64,000 nt of DNA from NCBI RefSeq assembly GCF_036321535.1, contig NC_087436.1, positions 74,588,001 to 74,652,000 of the forward strand, written 5' to 3'. The stretch comes from Camelus dromedarius (taxonomy: Eukaryota). Below, in pieces: positions 6,755 to 64,000 of the stretch. Below the pieces are notes generated by a model. The model was not told the DNA's origin, searched no databases, and was given only the letters and a program-made list of their open reading frames with translations. Made by a program: the position numbers and the translations under genes. The stretch's first letter is position 1. Every line of letters starts with the position of its first letter.

Positions 6755-6923
6755 TCGAGAATGAAAACCATTGTGATTTTGTGAAGCTTCGGGAGATGCT
6801 GATCCGCGTGAACATGGAAGATTTGCGAGAACAGACTCACACCCGCCATTATGAATTGTATCGGCGCTGTAAACTCGAAGAGATGGGGTTCAAGGACACT
6901 GACCCTGACAGCAAGCCCTTCAG
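6755..6923 (+). CDS. SEPT11: Septin-11 coding exon 7, (V)[15 protein letters not shown]...DSKPF(S)
   Basis: ttgcag acceptor, gtacaa donor, 169 nt; septin unique element; phase fits neighbouring exons. Confidence 0.97.
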
Positions 6924-8295
6924 GTACAAAGGCACCTAGCAGTCGGGGCCCCCAGACAGCAGTGGAGCGGGGGTGTGTGCTGGTGCGTTACAGAAATGCC
7001 AGTTGGATTCAGATATCAGGGGTGGGGGGCTTTGGGGGTAGATTGATAGCACGTATTGCCAGGCATTGCGATAACCACTTCATTTGCATCATCTCAGGTA
7101 GCTGACGTAGCTGGTGTCACTGTCACATCCTCATTTTAAACAGTCTAGGAAATGATGGCACTGAAAAGTGTAAACAGGCTGCCCAAGTAGGAAGTGACAG
7201 GCGTGTTCTTAACCGTTATACTCACAGAGGCCCCAGGACCCGGTCCAGGCATTTACAAAGATGTGGACGCTCATTACAGTTTGCCCAGTTCATCTTTGCC
7301 AAACAGGTTTAACTTGCCAAAGCTCCTACTTTTTGAAGCACTCGTATCAGCCTTAGGTGAATCGGTACGATTCTAACAATACGAGTGAGTAGGAGAAGGA
7401 ATAATTTCCAGAACATTTGTTACGTGTTTCCCCACACCATGGATGGATGCAGATGAAGAGGCAAAATGTGAAGGGGAGAATATCGAAATTAATGTAGAAT
7501 TAGTGGCCCAGCAAAGGCCAGGCCGTGGCAGAGCCCAGTGACGGGGAGGGGTCAGCAGGGGCGGAGTGCCGGGCCGCACAGTCTGGGTGAGTCGTCAGAG
7601 GAGGGCGAGGCTGCTGGGCCGGGTTTGCCGCCTCCTGGTACAGAAGTGGATTGCTTTGTCTCCGCTGAGCTGTGTAATTTCTTAATGGGGATTTGCATTG
7701 AGGTGATGTGAGGTGTGTCTGTGCTTGGTGCCTAAACTGATCGGGGACCACACTTCCTTGGAAAAGATGGTTTTCCTCCTCTTTTGTGGCTGGCCCTGTA
7801 ACTCATGCTCAGATGTGTAGGAGGCTGTGTGCAGTGCCGGTGGACTCCATCCCCTGGATCTCAGCTGTCATCAGGGTTGGAGGGGGTTACTTTCTTAGAA
7901 TCACTTTAGAGATAGTTTGGTGAACTCCAGGCTGGTCTCCTGGGACAGTGCCTGTGGAGCGCTGTGAGCATGCATGTATTTGGTGAGAACAATTGGAGAC
8001 CCCAGACAAAAGGCTTCTAACCAAGAAGTTAACTTGTAGCCAAGTTTGCATCATTTAGTCCTGCCCCAAGGGCTGGTAAAACTGACCCTCCTCAACCACA
8101 TGAAGTGTGCTTTCCGAGGCAGGGTGGAGGATGCCTTTTGTGCACACAAGTCCAGCTCACTGAACCTTGAAATGCAATGACTGAAAAATAGTCCCTGCAA
8201 CATCAGGCCTACTCTGGTTATTAAACCTGATGAAAATGGGTTTTGTGTGGCAGACGCCGTCTTTGTTCACCACATAGCTTACATGGGCTAGATCA

Positions 8296-8510
8296 GGGCA
8301 CAGTCAGACCTAGTGCCACGTGGGAGATGTTTTAGGCTCTGTGGACCATGTGATCTCTGTCCCAACTATTCAGTCCACTCTCACGTGAGAGCTGCTGGAG
8401 ATCTTAACCTAAGTGAATGGACGGGGCTGTGTTCCAATAAAACTGTATTTTCAAAAACAGGCAAAGAGGGGCCAGATTTCACGCTTAGGCTGTAATTTGC
8501 CAACCCAGGA
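8296..8510. mobile_element. MER58A-like hAT MITE
   Basis: gtgttccaataaaactgtattttcaaaaacagg and tttgccaaccc motifs. Confidence 0.7.
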
Positions 8511-10284
8511 CTAGGTCATAACTTGGAGCCCATACACTGCCTGCAGAAGTTCGAATGCATGGGACTGTTTCTTAAGTCCGTTAGAGGTAATTTACCTCCA
8601 GAATGTCAAGAGCCAGTCAGCACAGCTCTGTCCCCTGCATTCCCTTCCACCCTCTCGACCGATAGGCTGCTTGGGTCCCTGGAAACCAGGATGTGAGGAT
8701 TTCCTGCTGCTGCAGTGGGGCAGCCTCCTCTGCTGCCTCTGTCTCTGCCTTTGAATTGCAACATCTCCTCTGAGGCCACGGTCACTGCCCACCCGGAGGA
8801 GCGTTGCTAGGTACATCCAGCAGGTTCTGCAAGGCCTAGCAGAGCGGGGTCCAGCCCACTGCTCTGGTCTCCCTGTCTCCAGGGCCTTCAGGATGGGCAG
8901 GAGGTGCCGCTGAGGTCTGACTTGTGGAGAACGGTACTTCATTCCCTGAAAAGGGAGGAGCCTCCCCCCCCTCATTTGCATTTGGTTCTGCTGGCCTGGG
9001 GGTTTCTTTTTGATGATGAAAAGGAGGGAATTTATGTATCTATATGTGTGTATATATATAAAACATATACATAAATGCAGAACCAAGGCCTTTACACTTT
9101 TCCCTGCATAAAAAAATAAGTAGAGAAAAGTGGACTTTCTAAAAATAAATACCTTCCATCATCTCAATTGCTGGAACCCTGCAGGTAGTTTCTCTGCTTA
9201 GAAATCCACTCGCTCCGCCACAGGCAGCCCTCTTGGTGCAGGCAGGGTGATTTGGAACATAAACATTGGCTTTGAGTCCCAGGTCTTGGCAGAGAGCAAA
9301 GTGAAATGAACTTGGTGTTCCTTTCCTTGGAAACCACTGCTTCACAAAGGGTCTGGCCTTTCCCTTGGAGGAGTTTCCGGCCTCCCCAGCCCTTCCTGTG
9401 AGCCTGGCGGAGGGTGCAGGAGGGGACCTGCATGAAGGATCACTCAATTAAGGAAAAGCGAAAGCCACAGTTGGTTTGAGGGATTTCCCAGAATTTTCAC
9501 CTCTCCTGGATGCTCATACACGACTTGCTTTTCCTGTAAACTTAGGGTGAGCTTGGAGGAGTCTCAATGCAGGACTTAAGGGTTTTTATATTCTCAGAGT
9601 AGAGGTGTCCTTCATGAGGGTACAGGGAAGTCCATCCTCCCCTCTGGGCACCCAGCATTCACCGTTTTCCACTGGGGCCTCACTTGTGTTTATAAAGCAG
9701 AGGGTGGCCTCTAAAGCCAAGGCTTAGTAAGTGGCAGCTCCCCTGAATAAGTGACACTGAGTGACACAAAACCAGGAGCTGGGCGAGCACAGTGACTGGC
9801 CGCATTCAAGCCTTGGGAGTGCGTCCTCGGCACCAGAGCCCAGCCGCCCCCGGTGGTGTCCTTCCCCTTGTCTGGGTGCAGGGTTGTGTCTCTCTTGTCT
9901 TGAGGCAGGACCCCTGCAGCCTTGGAGCTCACGGTTCAGCCCAGCCAGAGCACCCAGGCCTTCCCTGGACCCCGGTCCCCCAGACCTGGCATTTGGGGTA
10001 GAAGGAGGGATGTAGCCCATGGACGAGGACTGGTCTTGTCCCTGCTGCTTGTCTCCTGGGACGCCACTGCCTTCTTCCCAGCCTTGCCTATCCTCACACC
10101 CCTTCCTCGTCTCAAATGCCATCTTCAGCTTGACTCTACCTGTCAGATCACAAAATGTGCTCCTTCCGCACCACTCTCTCAGGAGATCACAGCATTCTCA
10201 GGCCAATGAGACCTGTTCATTTCTAGGAGGCTGTAGGCCTCGCTTCCCCAGCGGTGCGGGAGACGGAGCCCCTGTCTGAGCTAG

Positions 10285-10450
10285 GTGGTCCGGGCGCAGA
10301 TCCTGGCTCTGTTGCTTCATTGTGTGACCTGGACAGGTTACTAAATGCCTCTGTGTCCATGTTTCTCCATCTGTAAAATGGGAGGTGATCATAAGGTCTA
10401 CCTGATTGGGTTGTTGTAAGGACAGTGCTTTCGCGTGTGTAAGTTCCTCC
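10285..10450 (+). mobile_element. MIR SINE (similar MIR fragments near 3460-3680, 7060-7200, 13860-14010, 57270-57450, 57850-58050, 62590-62790)
   Basis: Core tgtgtgacctggacaggtta...tttctccatctgtaaaatggga. Confidence 0.7.
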
Positions 10451-11509
10451 ATGGACACCAGTGACGTGTGATGCTCCGGCCTGTCCTCCATGGTCTGGTT
10501 CCGGGAGACGTGACAGGGAGAGAGTTGTGCTGTGTGAATTCGCTCCCCCTTCCATGGACCTCCAGGAGTAAAACCTGCCTGTATGAAGGCTAAGAGGAAA
10601 TGAGAAGATAAAAGCCTATTTTAAACCATCCTAAAACCTCATGAGAAAATTGTTCACTTCTCACTTGGAAAAGGTTGTTAATAACTACAATTAAAAGTTA
10701 AGTTAGAAGGGCTCAAAATTGCAAAAGGTATCATCACTTCAGGTCTCTGAGAGGATGATACAGGACCAGTTCCTTCTGGGCTGGTTTTTACTGGCTGGAA
10801 GCATTGGGGAGGGTGTCTGGTGTCTCTCGTTGATGCAAGGATTTCTGCGGCACCTGGGGAGTAGGACCTGGGAAGGCCGTGGCTGCTCCAAGTCACTTCT
10901 CGGAAACGCACTGCAGTGGACTCCTTGGAGGGAGGTGTTATGATTTCTTTCTCATAGGGGGCTTATTTCTAATGCATAGTTCCCGAGCTGATTCACATGC
11001 CTGGGTGCCGTCTAATAAGCTGCGTTTGCTGAGACCATCTTGTTCCTTAATCTTTCTCGAGGACACGTGCTTTCCAACTTTGGGCCGCAACCTTCACTAC
11101 GAAACATGTTGTGTGTCCTGATCCAATGTATGCATTCCATGAAGTAATACCTGCTCTTATTGTTTGCATTGCATTCGGGTTTCTTCTATCCTGTTCTCTA
11201 AACTTTTTCTTTTTACATTTAGGCTAAGACTCTCAACTGGGTTGTGACCCATAGTTTGAAAAACGTGTCTCCAGAAACTGGAGCCCGAACTAGGTAGTGG
11301 CTGGGACTGGAGTAGGCAGAGTTATCCCACGAGTTCTTAGAATCCCCCGGTAGCTTTCCCCAAAGGACATTCTCTCTGTAGGTGACTTAGCAAAAGTTTC
11401 CATGATTAAACAAATTTGGGGAGGTCCAAGTGAGTCAACTAAAACAGGTTTGTTTGTTTTTTGTTTTTATAAAATTGAAGGACTTCTCTGAGCATTTAAG
11501 ACAAACAAT

Positions 11510-11690
11510 GGTTGGCAGGCTAGTTACATCAAGTCACCTGGAAGCACTTGAAAAATACAGATTACTTTGCCTTCGCCTGACATCCTGAATCAGCATCTCC
11601 AGGAGTGGAGTTAGGAAACTGCATTTAGAGAAGTCCAGTTAAACGTGCCCAGGTGGTCCTGACCTGCTGCTGGACGTGGGAGCCACCACG
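11510..11690. mobile_element. MER5-like hAT MITE
   Basis: catcaagtcacctgga...aaaaatacagatt...ctgaatcagcatct motifs. Confidence 0.6.
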
Positions 11691-13610
11691 CACTGTGACT
11701 CACTGAAAGGGGGTCACGCGTGGCTTTTCCCTTTTATTTTTTTGACTTGGGAATCCCTCCTGTGAAGATTTCTTGAAACAAGCAATCTCTGGAACACATT
11801 TTGGGTCATGTTTCTTGGTAGTGTTTCTAGAATCGGTGTTCCATTGCTTGTTGGAAAGAAGAGGGGGGTGTATTTATTATCTTAAAATCGACAAAAACGG
11901 GCTTTCCCCCCAAATTTCATAGCAGGGACAAGTCATCCTCTGCCTTTGGCAGTTCTGACCCAAATAATAGTGATGAAGAGCTTATTAGAAGCTGATGAGC
12001 AAAATCAAACTCATGAACTGGTTCTGTGTCATCCTCTCAGATACCTAAAGTGATGACACCTTCCAATTTTTAGCCCTTACAACTCAATTTTTATTGTAGT
12101 TATTAACACCCTTTTCCGAGTGAGGCGCGAACAATTTTCTATATTTTTATTATCAATACATTTCTATATCTCTGTGGCTACGTAGCTTAAATTTCAAGTC
12201 CAATTATTACTATTTATATTGGCCAACAGTAACGCTGGCCAAATGTGCTTTTGTCTCATAAGATAATGAAAGAGCTAAAGACACCTCCAGAAACTCTAAA
12301 CTCGTGTTTGTCCATGAACAGGTAATGTTGACATTCCTGAGGGCAGGAGAACTTATTTCTTCATCCACCAGTAAAAGTGTTGATGAAAGAAGTCTAAACA
12401 ATCCTAATTAATACAGTTTGTAAGTGTTTAGCTCTTTGTGAATGTATATCTACATGCACATGCTTCCCTACAGCTGAATGTCCTTTTTCTCCTTCTGAAT
12501 GGACAAGTGTGAATGCTGGGCTGGCTCTGCATGGAGCCTGGGGTCATCCACAGGTGCTGTCCGCTTTGGAGTGAGCACTTGGGATGAACTTGGTGCCCAG
12601 GGAAAGGTGGCTAATCCTGCAGGCTTGTATTACTGTTAACAACTCTTGTTCTAGGGAAGTGCAAGGGAGAGAGAGAAGTGGCACTTAGCCGCAGATGTTT
12701 CTCTGTTTGTGCGAGTGCAGGTTTGGGTGTCTGTTTCTCTAAGTTGTGTTACCGAAGGGGATTTTTTTTTTGTAAATATATTTGTTCTGACTTGGAGATA
12801 AAACTGAGTCATGGCATTTGCTTTAAAATATTGGGCCCTGGGTTCTGTAGACAGTCAGGAGGAGGATGAGGTTTAAAATAAAAATAAAATTCCTCCCTGC
12901 TCTGTTTACCATTGGTACTCTGGCTGGGAGAGTAGCAATTTTCTGTAGTATCTTTAGATACACTATTGTCTCTTTAGATGGATCCCTGAGGCTGTGTTCT
13001 AAATTGAGTTCTGGAAGGAGATGAATGGGGGAGGTGACATTTATTCAGCCCTTAGGCTGTGTCGCATGCTTTACTCACTCTGCCCACATTTTACTCCTAT
13101 AATCATCTCCCCAGAAGGCATTGTATCCACATCTCCTACAAAGAACCCTGAGGCTGAGAGGCCACACCCTTCCCCAGATCAGTAAGTTGCTGTGGCCAGA
13201 ATCCAAGCTGGGATCTGCCTGGTTCCCTGGCTGATGCATTCCTCTCCCTGTGCCCCCTCCATCTTCTGAAATTCTGAATCCCATCTTCAGTGTCTACCTG
13301 GTACTGATCCGGGAGTCGCTGGCCAGCCTGGGCTTCCCCTTTGTGACAATATGTGGGCTACAGCTTGGCCGGGAGGAGACACCCCATTAGTGCTGCGCTG
13401 TGCTCATTGCCTCCTCTCTGGTTCCTGATGCGCTTGTCTTTCTGTTTGTCACGTAACTGAAAAGAAGATGGTGCCATTTTGTGTGTCCTTAAACCCGGTG
13501 AGTGGCAGTTTTATCTGTTCCAGGGAAGTGATTGGGTAGAAATGGTATAAACCAAAATGTCTTGTTCTGCAACTTCATGACACTGTCCTTGGTTTGTGGC
13601 TTTTAAATAG

Positions 13611-13743
13611 TCTTCAGGAGACATATGAAGCCAAAAGGAATGAATTTCTGGGAGAACTTCAGAAGAAAGAAGAAGAAATGAGACAGATGTTTGTTATGAG
13701 AGTGAAGGAGAAAGAAGCTGAACTGAAAGAGGCGGAGAAAGAG
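13611..13743 (+). CDS. SEPT11: Septin-11 coding exon 8, [44 protein letters not shown] (coiled coil)
   Basis: aaatag acceptor, gtgagc donor, 133 nt, in frame. Confidence 0.97.
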
Positions 13744-14871
13744 GTGAGCCATCCGTCCTCTGTCCAGGGAGAGAGACAGCCAGGACTCCATGCCATTCTA
13801 AATGCTTTCTGCGTGTATTTCGTCCCGGGCGTGGCCTACTAACCTGTAAGAGGAGTAGGTCAGCTAGTCTTGTCCCCATTTTACAGCTGCTAAAACCGAG
13901 AGTCATAAAGGTTACGCGATGTATGCAGTCACATACCGAGTTAGCAGCGCAGCCAAGACTGACACTAGACCCTGCATCTCCAGACCTGACCCCGCCTCCT
14001 TGTAGCTCTGTGTTCCCTCCATTTACAGGTGCTGAAATGCAAGCTCTGGGATTCTAGGACTATTATTATTGTCTCAGCCTATCAGCCAACTTGGTGAACT
14101 AAGCGGCGAGGGCCCTGGGCCACTGTCTGACGGGGCTGGGCTCCGGCTGCCACGTTTGTGCCCACGCGTCCCTTTGGGGCGCACACTCCCTGCTCTGGTG
14201 TCCCGCTGACTCCCAGGCCAGGGTAACTGCTTCCTAGAGGCTCAAGCGGAAGTCTGCTGTAGCGCTCACGCCACTGAGAGGGCGAGAAGTGTGTTTGCCT
14301 TTGATGGTGGATGCTGAGCATCTCAAGTGCTTGACCTGCTGCTTGGTGCACTTCCAAGTGGAATTGTCTCAGTCATTTCATCATCATCCCCTTTTGATTT
14401 ATCTTTATAAAGACTCCTGAAACTCAGACGTTATTTAAATAGCTAAGCACTCAACATAGTTTTGCTGCGGAGAGAGGAAAGTTGAGCCTTATTTGCTGTT
14501 GGCTTTAAGTACCAAGCAGATGCTGGGTAAAAATCTAGAATTATCTAGTGAGAATGACCTCCCTCCTTCCCTCCCTCCCTCCCTCCCGTCCTTCTTTCCT
14601 TCCAGTTTTTGTTTCTGCATTGTGATAATTTTCTAAATTCAATTTGTCTAGGGCCAGAAACTTCACATATTATTCTTAATTTGAATAGTATGTATGTATG
14701 TCGCACATACATGTAAATCTGTAGTCACTGTGTTAAGTCTCTCAGTAAATGTATATTATATATTTCAAAAAAGGATCAGAAGGAAAGAACTTTTACCACT
14801 AGGGTGAGTTTCTTACTAGAAGCAAGGAGAATTTTTATTTTCTTCTTTATGTTTTTTATGATGAATATGTT

Positions 14872-15030
14872 TCTTCTTCTTCTCCTCCTTTCTTCCTCCT
14901 CTTCTTTTTTTTTTTTTTTAATGGGAGGGGGTAATTAGGTTTATTTACTTTTAGAGGAGGGAGTGGGGATTGAACCCAGGACCTTCTGTATGCTAAGCAT
15001 GTGCTCTACCACTTGAGCTATACTCTCCCC
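14872..15030 (-). mobile_element. Vic-1-type SINE with purine-rich tail
   Basis: Reverse complement of the tRNA-Ala-like head plus cctaattac tail and poly(A); TSD-like tgaatatgt / tgaacatgt. Confidence 0.88.
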
Positions 15031-15275
15031 TGAACATGTATTATCAGAAAAAGTGCACCAGAATTCCCCTAAGTCCTAAGGCATCCAAGTCCCAAAGGAG
15101 CACAGGGCTCCGAGGGCTGCTGGTCACCATCTCAGCCTGGCTCAGCGCGGACGGCACCTCACTCGTGTAATTAAACGTGGCGCCGCCCGTGTTCTGGCTC
15201 AGAAGAGACCCAGACAGCCTTATACCAGTGAGCGTCCCGTTCCCGCCACCAAGCGTGTCCTCCTCTTCTCCCCAG

Positions 15276-15463
15276 CTCCACGAGAAGTTCGACCTCCTAA
15301 AACGGACACACCAAGAAGAGAAGAAGAAAGTGGAAGACAAGAAGAAGGAGCTGGAGGAGGAGGTGAACAATTTCCAGAAGAAGAAGGCGGCAGCTCAGCT
15401 GCTTCAGTCCCAGGCCCAGCAGGCTGGGGCCCAGCAAACCAAGAAAGACAAGGATAAGAAAAA
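15276..15463 (+). CDS. SEPT11: Septin-11 coding exon 9, [13 protein letters not shown]...[10 protein letters not shown], ends in phase 2 (AA)
   Basis: ctccccag acceptor, gtaagc donor, 188 nt. Confidence 0.97.
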
Positions 15464-41660: not shown

Positions 41661-41789
41661 CTTTACAGTAGCTAAGAACCTGTCCAAAAGACTACTAGCC
41701 AGTGCAAATGTTTCTGGGTAAAGATTGAATTGGTACTTGAGTTTGGCCAGCCACTGAATCACTTCATCTCTCTGGGATGGAGAAACATT
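41661..41789 (-). CDS. CCNI: Cyclin I exon 3, NVSPSQRDEVIQWLAKLKYQFNLYPETFALASSLLDRFLATVK
   Basis: ttatag acceptor, gtaaat donor, 129 nt; cyclin box start with LDRFL. Confidence 0.97.
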
Positions 41790-51729: not shown

Positions 51730-51843
51730 CTTATTTGTAGGCATTTTCGGCACATTCACCTTCCACATCTGGGCTTCCCTAGAGATTGCCTTTCCCAACA
51801 GGAAAGACAATTTCTGGTTTTCCAAAGGCCCTGGAAACTTCAT
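51730..51843 (-). CDS. CCNI: Cyclin I first coding part (exon 2 = 51886-51730), MKFPGPLENQKLSFLLGKAISREAQMWKVNVPKMPTNK
   Basis: ATG at 51843 in ATCATGA context; ttttatag acceptor 43 nt upstream; gtaatg donor. Confidence 0.97.
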
Positions 51844-52369
51844 GATATCCTTTGGATCTGCCTGCCACCCAGCTTGATGTAGCTACCTATAAAATCAAAT
51901 ATAAAACAATGCTCTACATTTAATTATAGATTAAGAATAGTATTGTACAAATATGTTGGTACATATGAAGCATTCATAAAACAAAATAAAAACGTTAGGA
52001 GGCAATACTGGATTTTATCGCTCTTTAAAATAGCATATATTAAAATGTTACAATAATCATCAGTTATCTAAAACATTCTCACTTTACATTTGAAATTCAG
52101 TTATAAAGAGAATAAAAATATGATCAAATAATTAATAGAACCTTTGGACTTGATCAAAACATATTATTACTGTGTCAAAAAATTGTTAAGTCCCAGGCTT
52201 TTTAAGACTACAAATTCTTAGAAGTAGTTGTCCCAAATATTCCTCTTAAAAATCTAACCAAATAAGGGCTAACCTCTCTCTTCATTTAAAAAGTTACATC
52301 AATTACATCAAATCCCACCCATTCCCATTTAACAAGTATGAAACCATCTCCTTAAGTATGAAACTATCT

Positions 52370-52570
52370 TGAATTGTGCTTACAATACAGTGTCCACTAG
52401 CTATACATACAGCTATTAAGTTAGAATTTAATAAAGTTGAAATATAATTCCTCAGTCACACTAGTCCCATTTCAAGTGCTTAACTGCCACGTGTGGCTAG
52501 TGGATACTGCACTGGACAGTGCAGAAAAGGAACACTTCTATTAATGCAGTAAGTTCCACTGGACAATGCT
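52370..52570. mobile_element. MER3-like hAT MITE
   Basis: cctcagtcacactagtcccatttcaagtgct...gtggctagtgg...ggacaatgctg. Confidence 0.75.
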
Positions 52571-54789
52571 GATCTATAAAACTCAAAAAGAAGGTAACCC
52601 ATACTCTAAAATGAGCAGCAAGTCCAAAGAGCAACAGTCTAGATCAATGCAGGGCAACTGAGAGTCCAAGAGATGTTTCTAGGTTTAAAAAAAAAAAAAG
52701 GAAACTATAGAGGTTTGACTGTGTATAGAAAATTGGATTGAGAAGCTGCTTTAGAATGTGAAAAGACTTAAATAGATTTGATGAAAGCTAAGGAACTATG
52801 GTTAAATTCATAAAAAGAGATTTTGCAAGAAGGTAAATATAATAACATACCATAATATTTACATAGCAATATAATGGAAATACTGAATAGAAATTTCAAC
52901 ACAAACATTGTGACAAAACTACACTTGGGAGGATAGGGGGTATTGGGAGAAAGCAGAACAAGAGCCTCATATTTGCATTTCATAGAGAAAAACCATAAAT
53001 AATATCTAAAATGGAAATACCAAAAATAGCAGTAGGTCAAATTATTTAAAAATATGATCTTAAATAACAAGAGAAACAGGTAAGAGCTAAGAGTTGTTAA
53101 CCTCTGGGGAGTGAGAAAATGGGGGGAAAGCTCTGCAGCAGGAGAATACTGTTTTTCATTGCAGACCTCATATAACTATTTCCTTTTTTCAACTGTGTGC
53201 CTGCATTATCATGTGCTTCAGATTCCTGGGAATCTTTTTTTTTTAAATTTAATGTCTAGAATTAGCATAAAAAGTTTCTAATTTCGGACAAAAATTTAAA
53301 ATTTGAAAAAAAAAAAAACAACCACAAACCTTTTTTTTTCAATTTCTACATTTCCACATCCCTGCCACTATCCTCTTTCCTATTAATCACCCCACATACT
53401 TCACTTGCTACTCAACCTATTGCAGACTGCCTCTGGTTAACTGGATTGTGATTTCTTCTTTTTGTTTCTTTAAATTTCCGAGTTTTTGAAAATTTTCTAT
53501 AACAAACATGAAGTACTTTTCATACTAAGAAAAAAAGGTAAATAATTTAGATAGAGAAAATAGTAACTATTCTGAAAGGTCCATCTCAAAAGTAATTTCT
53601 TCCAAGAACTTTTGATTCTCTCATCTGGCATGATTTCTCTCCCTTCTGAAAGCAGTTTCTCACCATCTTCCCTAATAAATTATAAATTCCTTTGCAGTCG
53701 TATCTACCAATCATGTTGTTATTACTCACAGTGCCCACAGCACAGTATCCAGATGAAACAAGGACTCAACCAAAGACTCATTTCAGGCCTTGGAGCTAAA
53801 AGCAAAAAACCATAACCAAAACAAACAAGCCCAAGTGTAATCTCTTTCACAGGCCAATCCTTCAAATGTCTGAAGGCTGCCATCATGCTCATCAGTTCAT
53901 TTTTTGCATAGCTGAAAAACTGTTCAAGAGTTCCTCACATGACATGATTTTTGCTCTTCTAAATTAGCACCAGTTTAATTGTTAACACTAAGATCATTAG
54001 CTATTTTTTTTTGAAGGCTACACCATATTATCAATTCAGATAGAACTTATGCTCAATTAAAACTTGTAAGACTTTCTAAGATACACTCACAGGCAAACTT
54101 CCCTAACCTACCCCCACCCCATTGTGTGTGGGGTTTTGGTGCCTTTTTGGGGGGGAGGTTGTTGGGGGGTGGGTACATCGTTGTTCAGAACCTTAAATAT
54201 ATATCCTTTCCAAAAAGTCATTAAATCCCATCTACTGTTATATTCTGCTGAGATGTTCTGAGATGCCAATTTTGTTGACTTGGTACTTTTCTCAGATTCT
54301 CCACAATTAGAAAAACAGACACACTATAATTTCATCTAAAGCAGACATAAATATCAACCTCAGAAATAGAGCATAAAGTAGATGATCACCTGTCAAGAGG
54401 TATTTAGAAGAAACACCTGTACTGGTTGAAAATTGTACTTAATATGTTCAAAGATCTCTTCTAAATCTAATTTTAGTTATAATTAATTCTTTTCAAAACT
54501 TTAAACTTACTTTATTATTTTATTCCCTTAGCTACACTCAACAGGGTGGCTCACCAGGATCTGCAAGCCTTCTCAACATACCCCAATGGTTGGCTGCCCC
54601 TAATAATTATTTTTCTTTTACAATGCTCCCTTTGAAGATTATTTTTAGGGGAGGATGGATGTGGGGGACAGAGAGGGACATGTAGGATAGAATCATGCAA
54701 AGAAGTATAAGATCAAGTTCAAGGGATTCCTGTTCTTCAATCTCCTGTAATTCAGGCCCTTAATAAGACTTTCAAATATTTAAATGCAA

Positions 54790-56250
54790 TAACAACTTTT
54801 TGAAAACAAAGGAATGCAGGTCAAAGAGGAAATCATAAAGGAAGTTAAAAAATACTCTGAGATAAATTTTAAAAGATCTAACATATACCAAAACTTACAG
54901 GAAACAATGAAATACCTTTAAATATCTACATTAAAAAAGATATCAAGTCAATACCCTAACCTTCCACCTTAAGACACTGGAAAAAGTAAATGAAGCTATA
55001 CCTAAAGCAAGTCAGAAGAAAGAAAATTAATATCAGAGTAGAAATTAGTGAAATAGAGAACAGAAAACTAGAGAAAAATCAATGAAACCAAAAGTTGGTT
55101 CTTTGAAAAGACCAAAACTGGCAAACCTTTAGCTGCACTGACCAAGAAAAAAACAAGGATAAAGTACTAAAATCAGGAATAAAGAGGGGACATTACTAAC
55201 TATGTTACAGAAAAAAAAAAAAAGGATTATAAAGAAATTTTATTAACCATTCTACACAAATAAATTGGACAATTTGGATGAAACAGACAAGCACTTAGAA
55301 ACAAACTATCAAGACTGACTTAAGAATTTTTAAAAAGCTTAAATAGCCATAAAGAGATTGAATCAGTAAACAAAGGTCGTCAAAGAAAAGCCCATGCCCA
55401 AATGGCTTCACTGGAGAATTCTACCAAACATTTACAGAAAAATAAGTACAAATTCTACACACTCTTCCAAAAAATATGAAGGAGGAGCACTTTTCATTAT
55501 ATAAAGCCAGTTATTATCCTGCTACCAAAACCAAAGACAAAAGCACTAGAAAACTATAGACCAATATCTCTTTTAAATAAGGATGCAGAATTCCTCAACA
55601 AAATACTAGCAAGCTGAATCTGGCAACATAAAAAAGGGATTATACACCATAGCCAAGTGGGATTTAGCCCAGGAATGCAAAGTTGGCTTAACACTGATAA
55701 ATCAATTTCATACACAGTATCAACCAAAGAAACATAGGAATCATTCTTTGCATACAATAGAGAAATGTAACAAAGGGGGGGAAAGTTCAAACTTCCTTAA
55801 ACTTTAAAAAATGGAGTATAAATAATACAAGTGAGAGACAAAAAGGATGGAGGACACGTGGGGATGTTCTAGATTTTCCAGGCTACAGAAAAATGAAAAT
55901 GCAATATCTGACCCTAGACTGGATCCTGTACTGGAGAGAGAAAAATGTTATAAAGGTCATTTTCAGGTCAATTGACATAATGAGAATTTAGATGAACTTC
56001 ATCAAAGTAAATGTATCAATGTTAAACCTACTAAAATTAGTAAGTTTACTATGACTCTGTAAAACAATATCCCTAATTCTCAGAAAATACACACTGAAAA
56101 GTTCAGGTGTACAGGGTCATAATGAATGCTGCAGAGAGGGGGTGGACGATGGGGGAGGAAAGACATGATAAAACAAATGGAGTAAAAGGTTAACAACAGG
56201 TGAATTCTGGTAGTTTCTTTTTAAAATTATTTACAAGTAAATTTAAGAAC
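54790..56250 (+). mobile_element. Decayed L1 ORF2 fragment followed by L1M 3' sequence
   Basis: aaaatcaatgaaaccaaaagttggttctttgaaaag, ggcttcactggagaattctaccaaacattta, ccaagtgggattta.cccaggaatgcaa. Confidence 0.85.
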
Positions 56251-58669
56251 ACAGAAGAAGAAAAACAAAACCCATAATTTATGAGAAAGTGCTTATATTA
56301 CCAGGTTTTTCTCTTTTTTACATTCCTTTTTGTAAGACAGATAATATGATACAGTGGAGAAAGCACTGGCTAGAGTTTGACTTCTTTTACTGATAGTCCA
56401 CAAACATGTTTTCTAATGTGTAGAACAGATTTGAGTTAGATGAATAATGAATCCTGGTAAGGAATACAACACAAACACTAAAAACATTACTGTTCTAAAT
56501 AGCAAAACTTTATAGTTGTATCTTGTTACTTTATGCCCATTATTGGTCACATCTAGAATTTTGAGTGCTGGGGAAAGTCTCTAGGAACTAAAAAACCAAG
56601 ACAACTGTATTTTGGTTGGCATGTTCCACACATTTCTAACTTGATGCATTTCACACTTCACCCATTCTTTCAGTTGCTACTTGCTTCTTTCTCTGCTTAT
56701 CAAATAGCTTCATGTCTGAATGAACAGTTTATAAAGTGCTTATCGTACAGTATAAAATTTATTACAAATCTACATATAGGGCCTCCTGCTCTTCCAAGGA
56801 AAAGTGCTGCACAGTGCTGGGTATATAACAAACAACTTTATTAATGTGAAAGTATTATTTTTATTATAATTGTAATGCCAACTCCATTAATAATTCTGTA
56901 CTGGTGTTGATTTCAGGATATTAGTTCCTCTTCTAAAAAAAAAAAGGGGGATTTATTAATGTGACCATACAAAAACCTCATGTTCTACTATTACCTCCTT
57001 AATAAGAGACTACAGTCACTTGTATTCCAAAACAGCCTGCTTTCCCAATCTCCATGCCTTTCCACACACTGTTCTTTCAACTTGAATCGTCTTTCTCTAG
57101 CTTACTCCCTCCTTACAGAGTTGCCATTTGCATATGTACTTGGTCATTATTACACTTTTGCATTTAATTGCTCCGTGATAACTGATTATTTGTAAGCCAG
57201 TCTCTCCTACTAATCATAAGTTTCTTGATGGTGAGCACTCTCCAGAGTTAGCACTGTGGCAAATAAATAATAATAGTTTACACTTCTTAAGCGTTTAACA
57301 ATAAAAAATCTGAGTGTTCACTACTTGGCCAGGTATTGTTCAAAGTACTATGCCATATTAACTCATTTAATCCTCAAAAACAAAAACCAGTATTATCATG
57401 AAGGTATTATTAAGCCCCTTTTAAAGATGAAGAAATATGCACAGAAAAGCAAATACTTTTCATTTTAAAAGTATTATACAATCAGAATAAAACATGTACA
57501 CACACTCTCAGCTTCCAATCTTGATCAAAAACATTTCGAGTTCATTCTAAACTACTAGGATGTCACATTGCCACATAAGCTTACTTATTTCGGTTTAACT
57601 GCATATCATCCCTATTGCATCTTTCCAACACACACTGACTCTTCTAGTCTGCTCTACATCAGTATTAAGAAACTTCTTCTAGTCCAGAAGCTCAAAATTG
57701 CTGATGCGCCTGAGTCCTGACTAGCAAGTCTAAATCCTGTCCGTCCTCTCTTAACCTATTTGTTCATTCCCTATTTCGTCTGCCACAAACGATCTGGAGG
57801 GGCTAGAAACAGATAACGCTACTTTAATCTCTTCGGGGACAGAAACTATATAGCATAGTCAGATGGCTCGGGTTTGAATTCTGGCACCAGGTTCTGTCAT
57901 CTAATGGGAAAATTAACTTATGGAGCCTCAGTTTCCGTCATGTGTAACATGCTCCTGAACTACCTGCCCTTGTGAAGATTCAATGAGTTGGAAACCACTT
58001 AGAATGATGCCTGCTCGACAATAAGCCTCAACAAGTGTTATTAGCATCATAACGTCACATAGCTGCTGCTCAAACGTTGAGTGGCTTCCACTAACAGACT
58101 AAAAGCTGAAGATTAGCTTGGCATTCAAAAGATCTTCAGTCTGATACCATTCTACCTCCCGAGAGATAACTTCCACTATTTTGCTACCCAATTCTCAACT
58201 CCTGCCAAAATAATCTGCAGTGGAACCCCCAGCTCAGCAGAGGGCCTTCTGCTTTCTTCTCAAATTTTCGGCATTTAACAGAATAATCCGTTTGTGTCTT
58301 TTTTTTTTTTTTAAAGATATCATATGGTATTTTCCTTTTTCTTTCTGGCAGATTTTCAGTATTCTCATCTGTCCCTTCAGATTGCAACTCAAGGCTCGTC
58401 TCCCCTCCCAGATTTCCCCACCTACTCACCCACACCCAAGATAACGTTCCCCTCCCCAGAGTTCCCGCTGCGCTGGCGATTCACCCATTCATCCATCTGG
58501 CCTTCCCTCGGCTTTGCAATGTAAGTGATCTTCCCCCAGCTCCCACTGGAGCGCCGAGGTCTAGGGGCGGGGGTGTGTCCCCTTCTTTGTGTATCACACA
58601 GGCTCGCGGAGCCTAGAACACGCACTAGTAGGCAATTTGCTACTGCTACAAAAAAAGTTACTCGCTGAC

Positions 58670-58701
<32 letters not shown>

Positions 58702-58883
58702 CCGAACAGGGAACCCAGTGGAGCCATTTCCAAACTGGGCAGGTGCCGAGAAGTCGGTGCCTGGAAAGGCTAGCGGGTCGGCGGGGGGCGGGGCTCGGCC
58801 GAGGAGCGTGCGGCGGCCGCGCGGAGTGGAGGGGGGTGCGCGCGCGGATCGCGGGGACGCGTCGAGCCCCCCCGCCCCCTCAC

Positions 58884-59465
58884 CTTCTCCTCCTCTTCCT
58901 CCTCTTCCTCCTCCTCCTCCTCCCCGGCAGAGCTGTAGGCCTCACAGGGGTGACGCGGGGTCATCCAGGGGCCCGTTACCACCTCATTATCCTCAGCGCG
59001 CAGCGGCGGGGCGTGCGGGACAAGGATGGGGCCGACTGAGGAGGGAGAAGAGGGGGAACCGGGCCGGAGGGCGCGGGCGCGGGCGCGGGCGCTCGCGCTG
59101 GAGCGGGATGCACGGCTGCGGCCGGTGGGTCGGTCAGCGTATTAGTTCCATGACGCCCCCGGACCTGAGGCCGCCGCCGGTCCCGCTCCTCCAACCGCCG
59201 CCGCTTGAGCCCAGGTGGGGAGGGGGTTCCCTCTCGCCATAGGGCGGCGGGGGCCGGGGAGAGGCGGGGGGTGAGACCGGCTCTGCCCCTGCCCGGGGGA
59301 AGCGCCTCCGAGGGGAAATGGTGAAAGGGAGGGGAAAGGAGAAAAAGGAAAAAAAAAAAAAAAAAAAAAAAGGAAGGGGAAAGGGGGGGAAAAAATAAGA
59401 AAAAGCGAGACAGAGGCGCTGCCGCGTCCGCTCGCGGGGAAGGCTGGGGAGGGAGGGGAGGGAAG
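58884..59465 (-). other. CCNI: CCNI non-coding exon 1 (5' UTR); transcription start approximate
   Basis: AAG|gtgagg donor at 58884/58883; lies in a CpG island; resembles the human CCNI leader as I recall it. Confidence 0.85.
58887..58922 (-). repeat. (GAG/GAA)12 triplet repeat at the 3' end of CCNI exon 1
   Basis: cctcctcttcctcctctt... on +. Confidence 0.95.
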
Positions 59466-61264
59466 AAAGAAGTGCAGGCTTCCTCGGCTCCGCCCTCGCG
59501 GACCGATTTCTAGACGGTCTCACTTCTTGTAAACAACACCGAAATGGTCTCACCCTCCCTCTTTTCCCTCTCCGCCGCCTTCTGCGTCCAACGAACGCAC
59601 AGAGAAGTCTGGCAAAAAGCTGGGCTATTGGAAACGGGTTAGGGAAGTCACTGGTATTGGGGCGAGAGGAGGGAATATTTTTTGAGGGGGTGGGGGAGCT
59701 AAGAAAAGCTAAAGGTACGTGGACTCGTTTTCCGCGGAGGAGCGGAAGGGTTCCTTTTCGGTTCCACCGTGACGTCAGCACCTCCTGGGCTGGCTGGAAG
59801 AGGCGTGCGGTGGCCGGAGAGTGCGCTGCGCATGCGCCCCGGGGAAGAAAGGAGCGGCTGAGTTCTCCTCTTGGGGGTGGGGTTCTGTGGGGGTGCGCCG
59901 AACCTAGTGCTACCTGATTTTATGCAGCCTGTGTTTGTCTCTGGGGCATGCAAAAGCGTCTTTTGGGAAAGGGCCGGCCATCTGTTGTGTAAAGATCTTG
60001 CATTCTTTGTTGATCTCGCAGAAAGTTCTGTGTTCTCTTCTTACCATTGACGTGTAAATAGAATTGCGGATTTTTCGCTGCCAGGTCGTGGGTGGAGGGA
60101 GATTCTAAAGCGCGTTAGAAGTCGGAAGATTTCGGGGAGCACATTCTTGAGCACCTTCTCTTTTTAAACCGTGAATTGTACTTCTGGTGGACGGGAATCA
60201 GCTTGGTAATGCGCCAAGGGAATTCTATCCACTTAAGCAACACATCTGAGTATTTCAGAGTTACCAGGTCTTTAAGGAGTGTGTGGTGACATATAAATGT
60301 GTTGTATTTGGGTTTCCTTTACTGAACCATGGTAAATTTTTGCTCATATAATTGTTTTAGTTGTAAAAAGAATATGTAGAATTACGGAAAAGTTTTGAAA
60401 GAGAAAAAAAAAATCCCCAAACTCAACCGTTTACAGAAATAGTCACATTTGTGTTTTCCATTTGTCTTTTTATGCCTATTTTAACAATCACTTAAATTTG
60501 TGTTGAGCTTATTCAACGAGCTAGACTAGCTGCTGAGCTCTAGCAAACTGTAAGTAACTGAGACAAATAGCTTCCACCTTCATGGAGTTTACAATCCAAA
60601 CACAGAAGCTAACTGTTGCGCTAATTAGCACTACCTTAAAATCACCCAGGACTGTTGATTTGTTACTTGTACACTGCATTCTCTCTCTAGAATATACGGT
60701 CTAGAGTGATAGGGATCTTGCATGTTTTTTATTTCACCCTGTATCCCTGCAAGTAAAGGGCTGTCAATATTTGATTACTGACTGAATAAACAGTTACCAG
60801 TATCATAAGTATTAAGGTGGAAAATTGCAGGCTGCCATGGAAACACTTAATCCTAGCCTAGTTAGGGATATCAGAGAAGATTTCTGTGAGGAAGAAACAT
60901 TTAAGATGAGACTTGAAACCACTGGGCAAAGAAGTGGAGACAAAGTGATACAGGCAGAGGAAACAATGTTCAAAGGCTCTGGAGCTGAGACATTCATTCT
61001 AAAACTCTCTGAAATGTAGTAAGGCTGGTCCTCAGAGAATTGAGAGGGAGAGAGCTGAGGTCAGGGGCAGGGGACAGAATAGGGAACGGAAGCCCAGGAA
61101 GGATTTTAAGTGGGTTGTATTTTGCTTTTTTCACTTCATGTAGCCTTTTTCCTGAGTAGTCTACACTGCTACGTGGTCTTCCTTCTACATAGGCAACTTT
61201 TTTTTTTTTTGCATAATTCCATTGTTGGACCATGAAATTGCTTCTGATCTTCAGTACTGTAAGA

Positions 61265-61810
61265 CTAATACCAATTCCATTCCCAGATATGTAGTCAAGA
61301 GAAATGTAAACATATCCACACAAAAACTTGGACATGAATGTTCACAACAGCATTATTCTTAATGGCCACAGGTGAAACAACACGGATGTCCACCAACCGA
61401 TGAATGCGTAAGTCACATATGGTTTATGTATGCAGTGGAATGTTACTTGGCCATAATAAGGAGGTACTGATATATGGTATAATATGGTTGACCCTTGAAA
61501 ACAATGTGCAGTCTTTTGTGGCTGGCTTCTGTCACATAACATAATGATTCCATTTATATGAAATGTCCAGAATAGGGAAATCTATAGGCAGAAAGTAGAT
61601 TCATGGTTGCTTAAGACTGAAAATGGAGATGGGATTGAGGGACCATAGAGAAAAGTTTGGGGGTTTCTTTTTGATGAGAATATTTTACCGTTGATTATGG
61701 TGATAGTTGCAACTGAATATACTAAAACTATTGAATTGTACACATTAAATACGTGAATTGTCTAGATGTAAATTATATATCAATAAAGCTGTTACCAAAA
61801 AAAAAAAAAA
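61265..61810 (+). mobile_element. L1M(B)-type 3' end with poly(A)
   Basis: atgttcacaacagcattattc, attccatttatatgaaatgtccagaatagg, caataaagctgtt plus A tail. Confidence 0.85.
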
Positions 61811-62327
61811 AGAGAGAGAGAGAAGGAACAAACCAAAAAGAATATAATTAGCATATTCATGTATAACCTTTTCTGGGTTATTCTGACAGTGTTTACATTT
61901 TCATGGCTTTTAATGGAAACCAATTTGGCAAATTGCTTGGAAGAAGAATTGAACCAATTAAAATGTAACCAGGAGTATTTAAGAGCTCTCACGTCATTAT
62001 ATACTTACCCTTTTTGAAGCTTAGTTTTATTAAAACTGTCTTACTGTCTGTGACAATTTAATCTAGAATTCTATAAATATAATAACAAGTAATTAGTAGG
62101 TGACAAGTAATTTGTTAGGATAACTGAAAATTTTGTCCTAACAAAAAATATGGATATTCTTTTTCTTCACTATTCATTCACAAGACCTTACTTTTATCAT
62201 CTCTCTTTTCTTGATAATTGTAAAATTGTTTTTTAAAATGAATTGTAGTTGTAACAAATGGAAAGTCTTTGAACTTCCCTGAGAAAATAAATAAGGCATA
62301 TAAAGAAGACATTAATATCCTTGAATT

Positions 62328-62462
62328 GCAATATCTTATAGTAACCTATAATGAAAAAGCATATGAAAACGAATATATATGTATATGTATGACTGAAACA
62401 TTGTTGTACACCAGAAATTGATACATTGTAATTGACTATACTTCAATAAAAATAAAATAAAA
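62328..62462 (+). mobile_element. Younger L1 3' terminus, 5'-truncated
   Basis: gtaacctataatgaaaaa...gtacaccagaaattga...tatacttcaataaaaataaaataaa. Confidence 0.75.
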
Positions 62463-63569
62463 CCCTAAAAGAAATTCTTGTATTAGTAAGGAATTCTGCT
62501 TTTTCATTTTTTAAAATATTTTTTAGGAAGAATTTGTTCAAAACAGTAAAAATAAACTACCTTTCTACATGGTATTTGACAGCAATAGTAACTAAAATAT
62601 GTTGATTAATCACTGTGTACCAGGCATTGCACTAAACACTTGTATTACATTCCCTTGTGTGTATTCCTACAGCACTCCTCTACCGTAGGTATTTTGTCAT
62701 CCCCATTTTTCAGAAGATAAAGAAGTAAAATAAATCTCTTCAAGACTGTTCACACAACTTGTCTGACTCCAGCGCCTACCCTTTACTACCTTACCCTGTG
62801 GGTATTTCTGGCTTGCATTGACGTCTTCAAACAAAAAATACTCACCCTATGGTTATTTTTGGCCTGCCTTTAATCTTAGAACAAATATTCAAAAAGAATT
62901 TTTAGAGAGCAGTTTATATTTATGTTTCTAGAGAGTTAATTTTTGCTTGAAAAGGGGTGATTCAAATTTTCTTACACTTGTTTTATTTCATGACTGGAAT
63001 ACTGAATCTTAAAATAGAAACATGCCTTGCTTCAAATGCAGAGTGGTAGAGTAAGGAAGAAGAAACAGTGTGCTCTCATAATAAAAGCTCTGTTCTGAAA
63101 TGCAATATAATGTCAGGTGAAACCTCTTCAGAAGTCTAGGACAGCTGAGCAGAATCAAGTTGACAAACAAGAGGCTTTGCTGTAATCTTTTAAGAAAAAT
63201 AATTAGACCCTGACTGCTTACATTTTTATGAGTATAGAAGACAAGGCTACTTAATCTTTAGTGACAGAAATTTCTAGTCTCCTTTGTCTTAAATGAAATT
63301 TTCAGGGTAATGTTCCCAGCAGACAATTTATGAAGGTACTATCTTGAAGAAATACTAAGACCTACAGGGACAAAGGAAGTGATTTACTGTCATTATAATC
63401 ACTTATCTTTAGCATTTATCTGCATTTAAGAATCTTTTTTACAGCTTCCAAAATACTGATTTTCTTTAATCTCTACAGAGACAGGATGTAAGGGGAGTAA
63501 ACCCATCAAATAGACAGGAAGAGAAAAGGAGTCCACATTCACCAAATAACATAAAGATCTCCTGCTTAC

Positions 63570-63735
63570 TATTTTTTTAGAGTATAATTGATTTACAATG
63601 TTGTGTTAGTTTCAGGTGTACAACAGTGTTTCAGTTTATATATATATATTCTTTTCCATTGTAGGTCATTACAAGATATTGAATATAGTTCTCTGTGCTA
63701 TACAGTGGGTCCTTGTTGTTTATCTGTTTTATACC
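63570..63735 (-). mobile_element. L1 3' terminus fragment
   Basis: gagtataattgatttacaatgttgtgttagtttcaggtgtaca...ctgtgctatacagt. Confidence 0.75.
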
Positions 63736-63914
63736 CCCTACTTACTATTAAGTAGGAAGAAAGTGCTCAGATAAAACAAGTCAAAAATTCTAAAATAGAA
63801 GGCCACAAGTTTTCCAGGCTTTGACTAACTCCAAATGTAAACTGGCTTTAGGTTTCTCATACTTTGGTACTTATTTAGAAGGACTTCACTGGGTGGGATC
63901 ATTGGCTGCATGCT

Positions 63915-64000
63915 TTTTTTTGTTTGTTTGTTTCTTGCAGTGGGGAAGTAATTTATTCATTTGGTGGAGGTACTAGGGATTGAACCCAGGACTTCACACA
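63915..64000 (-). mobile_element. Vic-1-type SINE, cut off by window end
   Basis: ggaggtactagggattgaacccaggac with T-rich tail. Confidence 0.75.

Follow-up and report, generated by a model that had tools for sequence, protein, structure and literature searches.

A spliced upstream reading frame of likely tetrapod age overlaps the cyclin I start codon in the dromedary

Main

In the leader of CCNI, the cyclin I gene of the dromedary (Camelus dromedarius), an ATG in exon 1 opens a reading frame that needs splicing, carries a run of glutamate codons and extends across the main start codon. This raises the question of whether such a frame restrains cyclin I synthesis, yields a working peptide, marks the start of another cyclin I isoform or is a by-product of leader sequence kept for other reasons. 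We addressed it in a 64,000-nt stretch of dromedary DNA (the window), to which all coordinates refer. The overlapping upstream open reading frame (uORF) is real, of a common kind and already known from a human catalogue; added here are its likely tetrapod age, a shift of the frame in muroids, the sharing of its ATG with other splice forms, and a leader layout that reverses that of ATF4. A literature search returned no study on the function or deep conservation of this ORF (supplements of later catalogues were outside its scope) and no full-text match to the catalogue identifier, c4riboseqorf52.

Anatomy of the overlapping uORF

Exons 2–7 of the gene, with AG/GT borders, encode 377 aa, and the exon-3 piece matches Cyclin_N; together with a close match to alpaca cyclin I described below, this identifies the gene as CCNI. 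The anatomy proposed in an earlier, sequence-only reading of this DNA was borne out: the uORF starts at the ATG at 58964 (minus strand, as are all leader and CCNI features below), runs for 81 nt, or 27 codons (58884–58964), to the exon-1 donor AAG/GTGAGG, the last exonic base being 58884, and resumes beyond an intron of about 7.0 kb (51887–58883, GT...AG). In exon 2 (51730–51886; 157 nt between AG and GT, comprising 43 nt of UTR and 38 codons) it passes through the 43-nt UTR part, crosses the CCNI start codon (51841–51843; context −3 A, +4 A) and ends at a TAG (51779–51781) that is made by main codons Ser21-Arg22, 62 nt past the main ATG. The product is 62 aa, in the +1 frame relative to the main ORF. 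Also as claimed, the start codon is crossed out of frame and the peptide contains a run of 12 Glu, encoded by 10 GAG and 2 GAA codons in a (GAR)12 tract (58887–58922) that adjoins the donor. On the spliced mRNA, the AUG thus lies upstream of the main AUG, in another frame, with its stop downstream of it, as in any overlapping uORF. The leader has three more ATGs, which open uORFs of 32 aa (uORF1, 59142–59240), 5 aa (uORF2, 59134–59151; context −3 G, +4 G) and 3 aa (uORF3, Met-Arg-Trp, 58976–58987; context −3 A).

The camel junction between exons 1 and 2 is predicted, from splice signals, from a two-exon human record and from spliced-form proteins of other mammals. At least half of the words of exon 1 were present in 20 of the 24 sequencing runs listed; one run is on record as RNA. 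When leaders with three assumed starts were each dinucleotide-shuffled 3,000 times, an overlapping uORF of at least 62 aa arose in 11–19% of shuffled leaders, and any out-of-frame overlapping ORF in 31–51%. The bare presence of the frame is near chance; its conservation is not.

The human counterpart, c4riboseqorf52, is a Ribo-seq-derived overlapping uORF of CCNI, catalogued as 59 aa in exons of 72 and 108 nt (PMC10032668, supplement). The two frames agree in gene, two-exon structure, 108-nt exon-2 part, start, frame and stop; they differ in the exon-1 part (81 nt in camel versus 72 nt), in length (62 versus 59 aa), in Glu number (12 versus 9) and by a few substitutions. A stored protein, P0024, is letter-identical to the human entry. 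Ribo-seq, which the sequence-only reading had named as a check, thus spoke for the frame through its human orthologue, catalogued as translated, and by the same token the ORF had already been catalogued (PMC10032668). For this entry the supplement lists one mass spectrometry study, PhyloCSF scores of −33.4 (primates) and −354.9 (mammals) and the labels 'primatomorpha - young' and 'de_novo_ORF' (PMC10032668). The row after it, c4riboseqorf53 (24 aa), is the orthologue of camel uORF1 (PMC10032668).

Conservation and age

Protein searches and cluster look-ups yielded 275 stored proteins, 105 of them with the exon-1 motif. Among these 105, the +1 form with the same stop accounts for 38 (23 distinct, 56–64 aa) and the exon-2-skipped form for another 38; 7 are shifted, 5 are +1 forms with another end, 2 use an acceptor displaced by 4 nt (+4 acceptor) and 15 are other forms, mostly unspliced. 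Because homologues were picked by similarity to the ORF, species that lost it go uncounted and the figures are not a census. The uORF is intact in Vulpes lagopus (Arctic fox) and Prionailurus iriomotensis (Iriomote cat). The earlier proposal that triplet changes in the repeat keep the frame agrees with the homologues, in which the tract varies by whole codons only (peptides of 56–64 aa). Models from dugong, humpback whale and a bat retain the ATG and the +1 frame as far as the main start, where the frame jumps; in these low-quality models (P0063, P0087 and P0255, from dugong, whale and bat) the uORF is fused to the main ORF in a false protein of 415–416 aa.

The seven shifted forms have one extra base, which makes the stop overlap the main AUG, so that the AUG is still covered. 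We call them muroid-type because their upstream sequence and Lys runs recur in named voles and mice, and because a Myodes model (P0114) displays the extra base directly; mouse and rat likely carry the shifted version. The ATG, frame and stop, whose conservation the sequence-only reading had named as a check, are widely kept, but the long overlap is lost in the seven muroid-type records. In one further protein, P0055, exons 1 and 2 are joined with about 7 extra bases, which also places the uORF end on the main AUG, through another acceptor or an assembly error.

A profile search also retrieved P0050, P0056, P0057 and P0060, which together with P0118 and P0119 form the non-mammalian evidence: six predicted proteins whose taxa are inferred, P0050 and P0119 being without exon 1. 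In P0057/P0118 and P0060 a Met stands 15 residues ahead of the end of the exon, the mammalian position once the Glu tract is removed; poly-Glu is absent, the UTR part amounts to 14 codons and the stop is the same. When the +1 ends were compared with 109 decoded cyclin I N-termini, P0057 had 0 of 21 codon mismatches solely to Xenopus, Hymenochirus and two other proteins, and P0060 had 0 of 21 to bird and reptile cyclin I, and is thus sauropsid-type. P0119 agrees with named birds at 28 of 28 codons, and P0056, whose Met lies 17 residues from the exon end, is nearest to the frog type (1 mismatch). Ten residues (M1, Y10, S11, A13, G14, V, A, W, G and G) are invariant in all 10 aligned forms.

Intact ORFs thus occur outside Primatomorpha, in camel, fox, cat and the frog- and sauropsid-type records. 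By this comparison of sequences the overlapping uORF likely predates the split between frogs and mammals, contrary to the 'primatomorpha - young' label of the catalogue, and the poly-Glu tract would likely be a later, placental-type addition. Should the frog- and sauropsid-type records hold up, a human ORF catalogued as young and de novo would be hundreds of millions of years old, which, if true, is a warning on the dating of spliced, repeat-containing ORFs. Metagenome contigs gave 342 pattern matches to mammalian CCNI loci, of which none was confirmed. P0062, a Camelus dromedarius model, is probably a retrocopy: the leader and uORF are present in diverged form, seemingly uninterrupted by introns, and a frameshift lies close to the end.

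Alternative readings of the frame

Besides repression, the sequence-only reading had offered an acidic microprotein as the outcome of the frame, an option that fared poorly. Over the 28 peptide columns outside the overlap we counted 60 distinct substitutions, with a mean BLOSUM score of −0.82 against −0.67 for neutral change; the test is weak, in that the cyclin I control was also no better than neutral in substitution quality (P = 0.35), its rate being 0.69 per column against 2.1 for the peptide. AlphaFold2 returned a pLDDT of 56 and a pTM of 0.12 with either alignment, models too poor for a fold search, and the ESM Atlas gave no usable match to the human-type peptide. From these substitutions and models the peptide looks unconstrained and without fold. 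Its C-terminal third is lost in muroid-type forms. The negative PhyloCSF scores point the same way (PMC10032668). The one mass spectrometry study listed for the human ORF speaks for a peptide, although an exon-1 peptide may derive from exon-skipped cyclin I instead. The ten invariant residues do count in favour of a working peptide, as does a likeness to the transcription factor TFIIE-alpha: in a scan of homologues of the camel peptide, 16 placental +1 forms and 5 older ones, the Pfam family TFIIE-A_C (PF11521) was matched by 15 of the placental forms, 6 of them at or above the 22-bit cut-off, and the best PDB match of the uORF peptide was TFIIE-alpha (E 0.039). The shared features are those of the TFIIE-alpha acidic domain (PDB 2rnq, 2jtx), namely an acidic run followed by VA, VAGR, Y-x-EVS and PE-x-V. 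None of the 5 older, non-placental-type forms matched, and the match requires YHEVS, which the main start codons dictate; forms that end before it show no match. In TFIIE-alpha, a Phe in the acidic run is important, and an aromatic residue there together with a folded domain characterizes TFIIE-A_C. The uORF peptide shows neither: Glu stands opposite the Phe, the C-terminal helix and a predicted fold are missing, and in carnivore and bat forms the matched Val is Glu. The likeness is therefore probably due to chance, as judged from the alignments. Descent from TFIIE-alpha was rejected: there is no sign of common descent, and the matching residues are ancient cyclin I codons read in the +1 frame. 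We rate as quite unlikely a functional acidic microprotein, one that might mimic the acidic tail of TFIIE-alpha and bind TFIIH p62. Far less probable still is the fullest version, in which a tetrapod-old uORF sits on a splice switch, its ATG leads either to a repressing microprotein or to an acidic-tailed cyclin I, and the placental acidic string mimics TFIIE-alpha and binds the PH domain of TFIIH p62; such a mimic, if true, would link the leader of a cyclin gene to transcription and repair.

Splicing can give the same ATG other fates. The end of exon 1 and the start of exon 3 (41661–41789) are both in phase 0, so that skipping of exon 2 would turn the ATG into the start of an in-frame, 366-aa cyclin I with an acidic N-terminus; 364 of its 366 residues agree with Vicugna pacos cyclin-I X2, the difference being two extra Glu, which marks the window as camelid-like, and the form corresponds to the annotated isoform X2/X3 of placentals, muroids included. 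RefSeq cyclin-I X2/X3 (363–367 aa) has the ATG and the exon-1 codons in common with the uORF and differs from it in passing in frame into exon 3, in keeping the cyclin box and in being a separate transcript. A second AG lies 4 nt inside exon 2 (first base 51882), and use of this +4 acceptor would bring the uATG in frame into an N-extended cyclin I of 417 aa, a form seen in a Galemys model (P0067). In P0012, which is muroid-type, the +4 acceptor restores the +1 overlap and the stop is lost there. P0016, known from one contig, reads from the end of cyclin I exon 3 directly back into the beginning of exon 2, the order that a circular RNA back-spliced from exons 2–3 would give.

Could the ATG then be kept as the start of a functional exon-2-skipped (or +4 acceptor) cyclin I, with the +1 uORF as a side effect? 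The matching phases speak for it; the exon 1–3 join occurs in 38 stored proteins, survives the muroid shift and is named in primates, carnivores, whales, pig, alpaca, rabbit, squirrel, bats, elephant and muroids, and the cyclin box is kept (Pfam profile 22–126 versus 18–126). The supporting proteins are, however, automatic gene models, their N-terminus did not turn up among the stored cyclin I proteins of non-mammals (in a search that favoured exon-2-containing forms), the exon-1 residues vary radically, and our literature search found no paper on the isoform, which leaves us doubtful of this reading. The frame might also be a by-product, with the leader and exon edges kept as RNA or splicing elements and the weak ATG without meaningful effect. 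A purine-rich GAR tract next to a donor is a typical splicing enhancer; an overlap as long arises in the 11–19% of shuffles given above, the tract accepts Lys, Gly, Gln, Asp, Val and Ala in homologues, the substitutions look neutral, and the stop arises from Ser/Thr-Arg codons of the main frame. Against this, frog-type, sauropsid-type and placental forms have one and the same start position, exon-2 UTR length and stop while their residues vary freely, and reading past the stop is confined to a single case, P0012, which belongs to the muroid type, whose usual splice has ceased to use that stop. The human ORF is, moreover, translated (PMC10032668). We consider a by-product unlikely, if a shade less so than the microprotein or the isoform start.

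Translational control of cyclin I

The reading that we favour, and hold to be probable, is that the overlapping uORF is an old cis-acting brake on cyclin I that ribosomes would bypass by leaky scanning and reinitiation, its peptide being a by-product. That out-of-frame overlapping uORFs block initiation at the main ORF is established logic. Ribosomes starting at 58964 would run past the main ATG and stop beyond it, and therefore could not make cyclin I. One inferred route to cyclin I would be leaky scanning past the uATG, aided by eIF4G2: many ribosomes likely scan past it because its context (−3 T, +4 A) is weak compared with −3 A at the main ATG and because no hairpin helps. No stable hairpin was found around the uATG (z +1.2, −0.3 and +1.6), and structure-aided initiation there was rejected for lack of one.

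A second route may lie in uORF3, whose stop is 11 nt upstream of the overlapping ATG and 135 spliced nt upstream of the main ATG. By the rules of reinitiation, ribosomes leaving this 3-codon uORF would miss the uATG, and would resume initiation at the main ATG only with ample ternary complex; 11 nt are likely too short for restarting at the uATG, and 135 nt would serve the main ATG. At the protein level only, upstream residues allow an ATG at the position of the 3-codon uORF in all 25 homologues that have the region. ATF4 and ATF5 are controlled by a two-uORF system, and CCNI resembles them in that a 3-codon uORF precedes an out-of-frame one of about 60 codons that spans the main start. It differs in the 11-nt gap, in the weak context and in the reported response of its mRNA to eIF2 stress, which is extra sensitivity and not induction. 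With the spacing reversed, the layout would predict extra loss, and no induction, under eIF2 stress, in agreement with the CCNI reports. A stress-induced leader of the ATF4 type was rejected, as CCNI is described as extra sensitive, neither resistant nor induced (PMC8789081, PMC4383229).

These proposals can be set beside published reporters. The human CCNI leader is one of the validated eIF4G2-dependent leaders: its reporter requires eIF4G2, responds also to loss of eIF3d and eIF4G1, and shows heightened sensitivity to eIF2 inhibition (PMC8789081). The requirement for eIF4G2 fits the earlier claim that a weak start context makes leaky scanning likely, as does the context itself. CCNI stands in the same validated set as the eIF4G2/DAP5-dependent leaders of Maf1, Stard7 and APAF1, with the difference that the responsible uAUG is unmapped for CCNI, whose five human uAUGs were left unmutated in the reporter study (PMC8789081). 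The need for eIF4G2 could stem from any of the five, and our literature search found no uAUG-mutant result for the CCNI leader. CCNI is also among seven mRNAs described as arsenite-sensitive (PMC4383229), and Ccni footprints are reported to drop on depolarisation at constant RNA (PMC5269599). For a TOP-mRNA explanation of the stress sensitivity, the literature search gave nothing specific. The leader offers a specific and cheap test of which uAUG is responsible, the overlapping ATG or the 3-codon uORF 11 nt before it.

Other features of the locus

No Rfam family was found in 52000–64000. Two poly-T runs stand on the CCNI strand, of 23 nt at 59349–59371 and of 29 nt at 58670–58698, in a pyrimidine-rich leader and early intron 1. 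Coding stretches at about 6800–15450 on the plus strand match septin motifs, consistent with a putative SEPT11 neighbour. Camel cyclin I has Lys11 and Gly17; among 109 N-termini compared by eye, residue 17 is Glu throughout and residue 11 is Arg with two exceptions. In the uORF frame, each of the two changes lies at a third codon position (51730–51843, minus strand).
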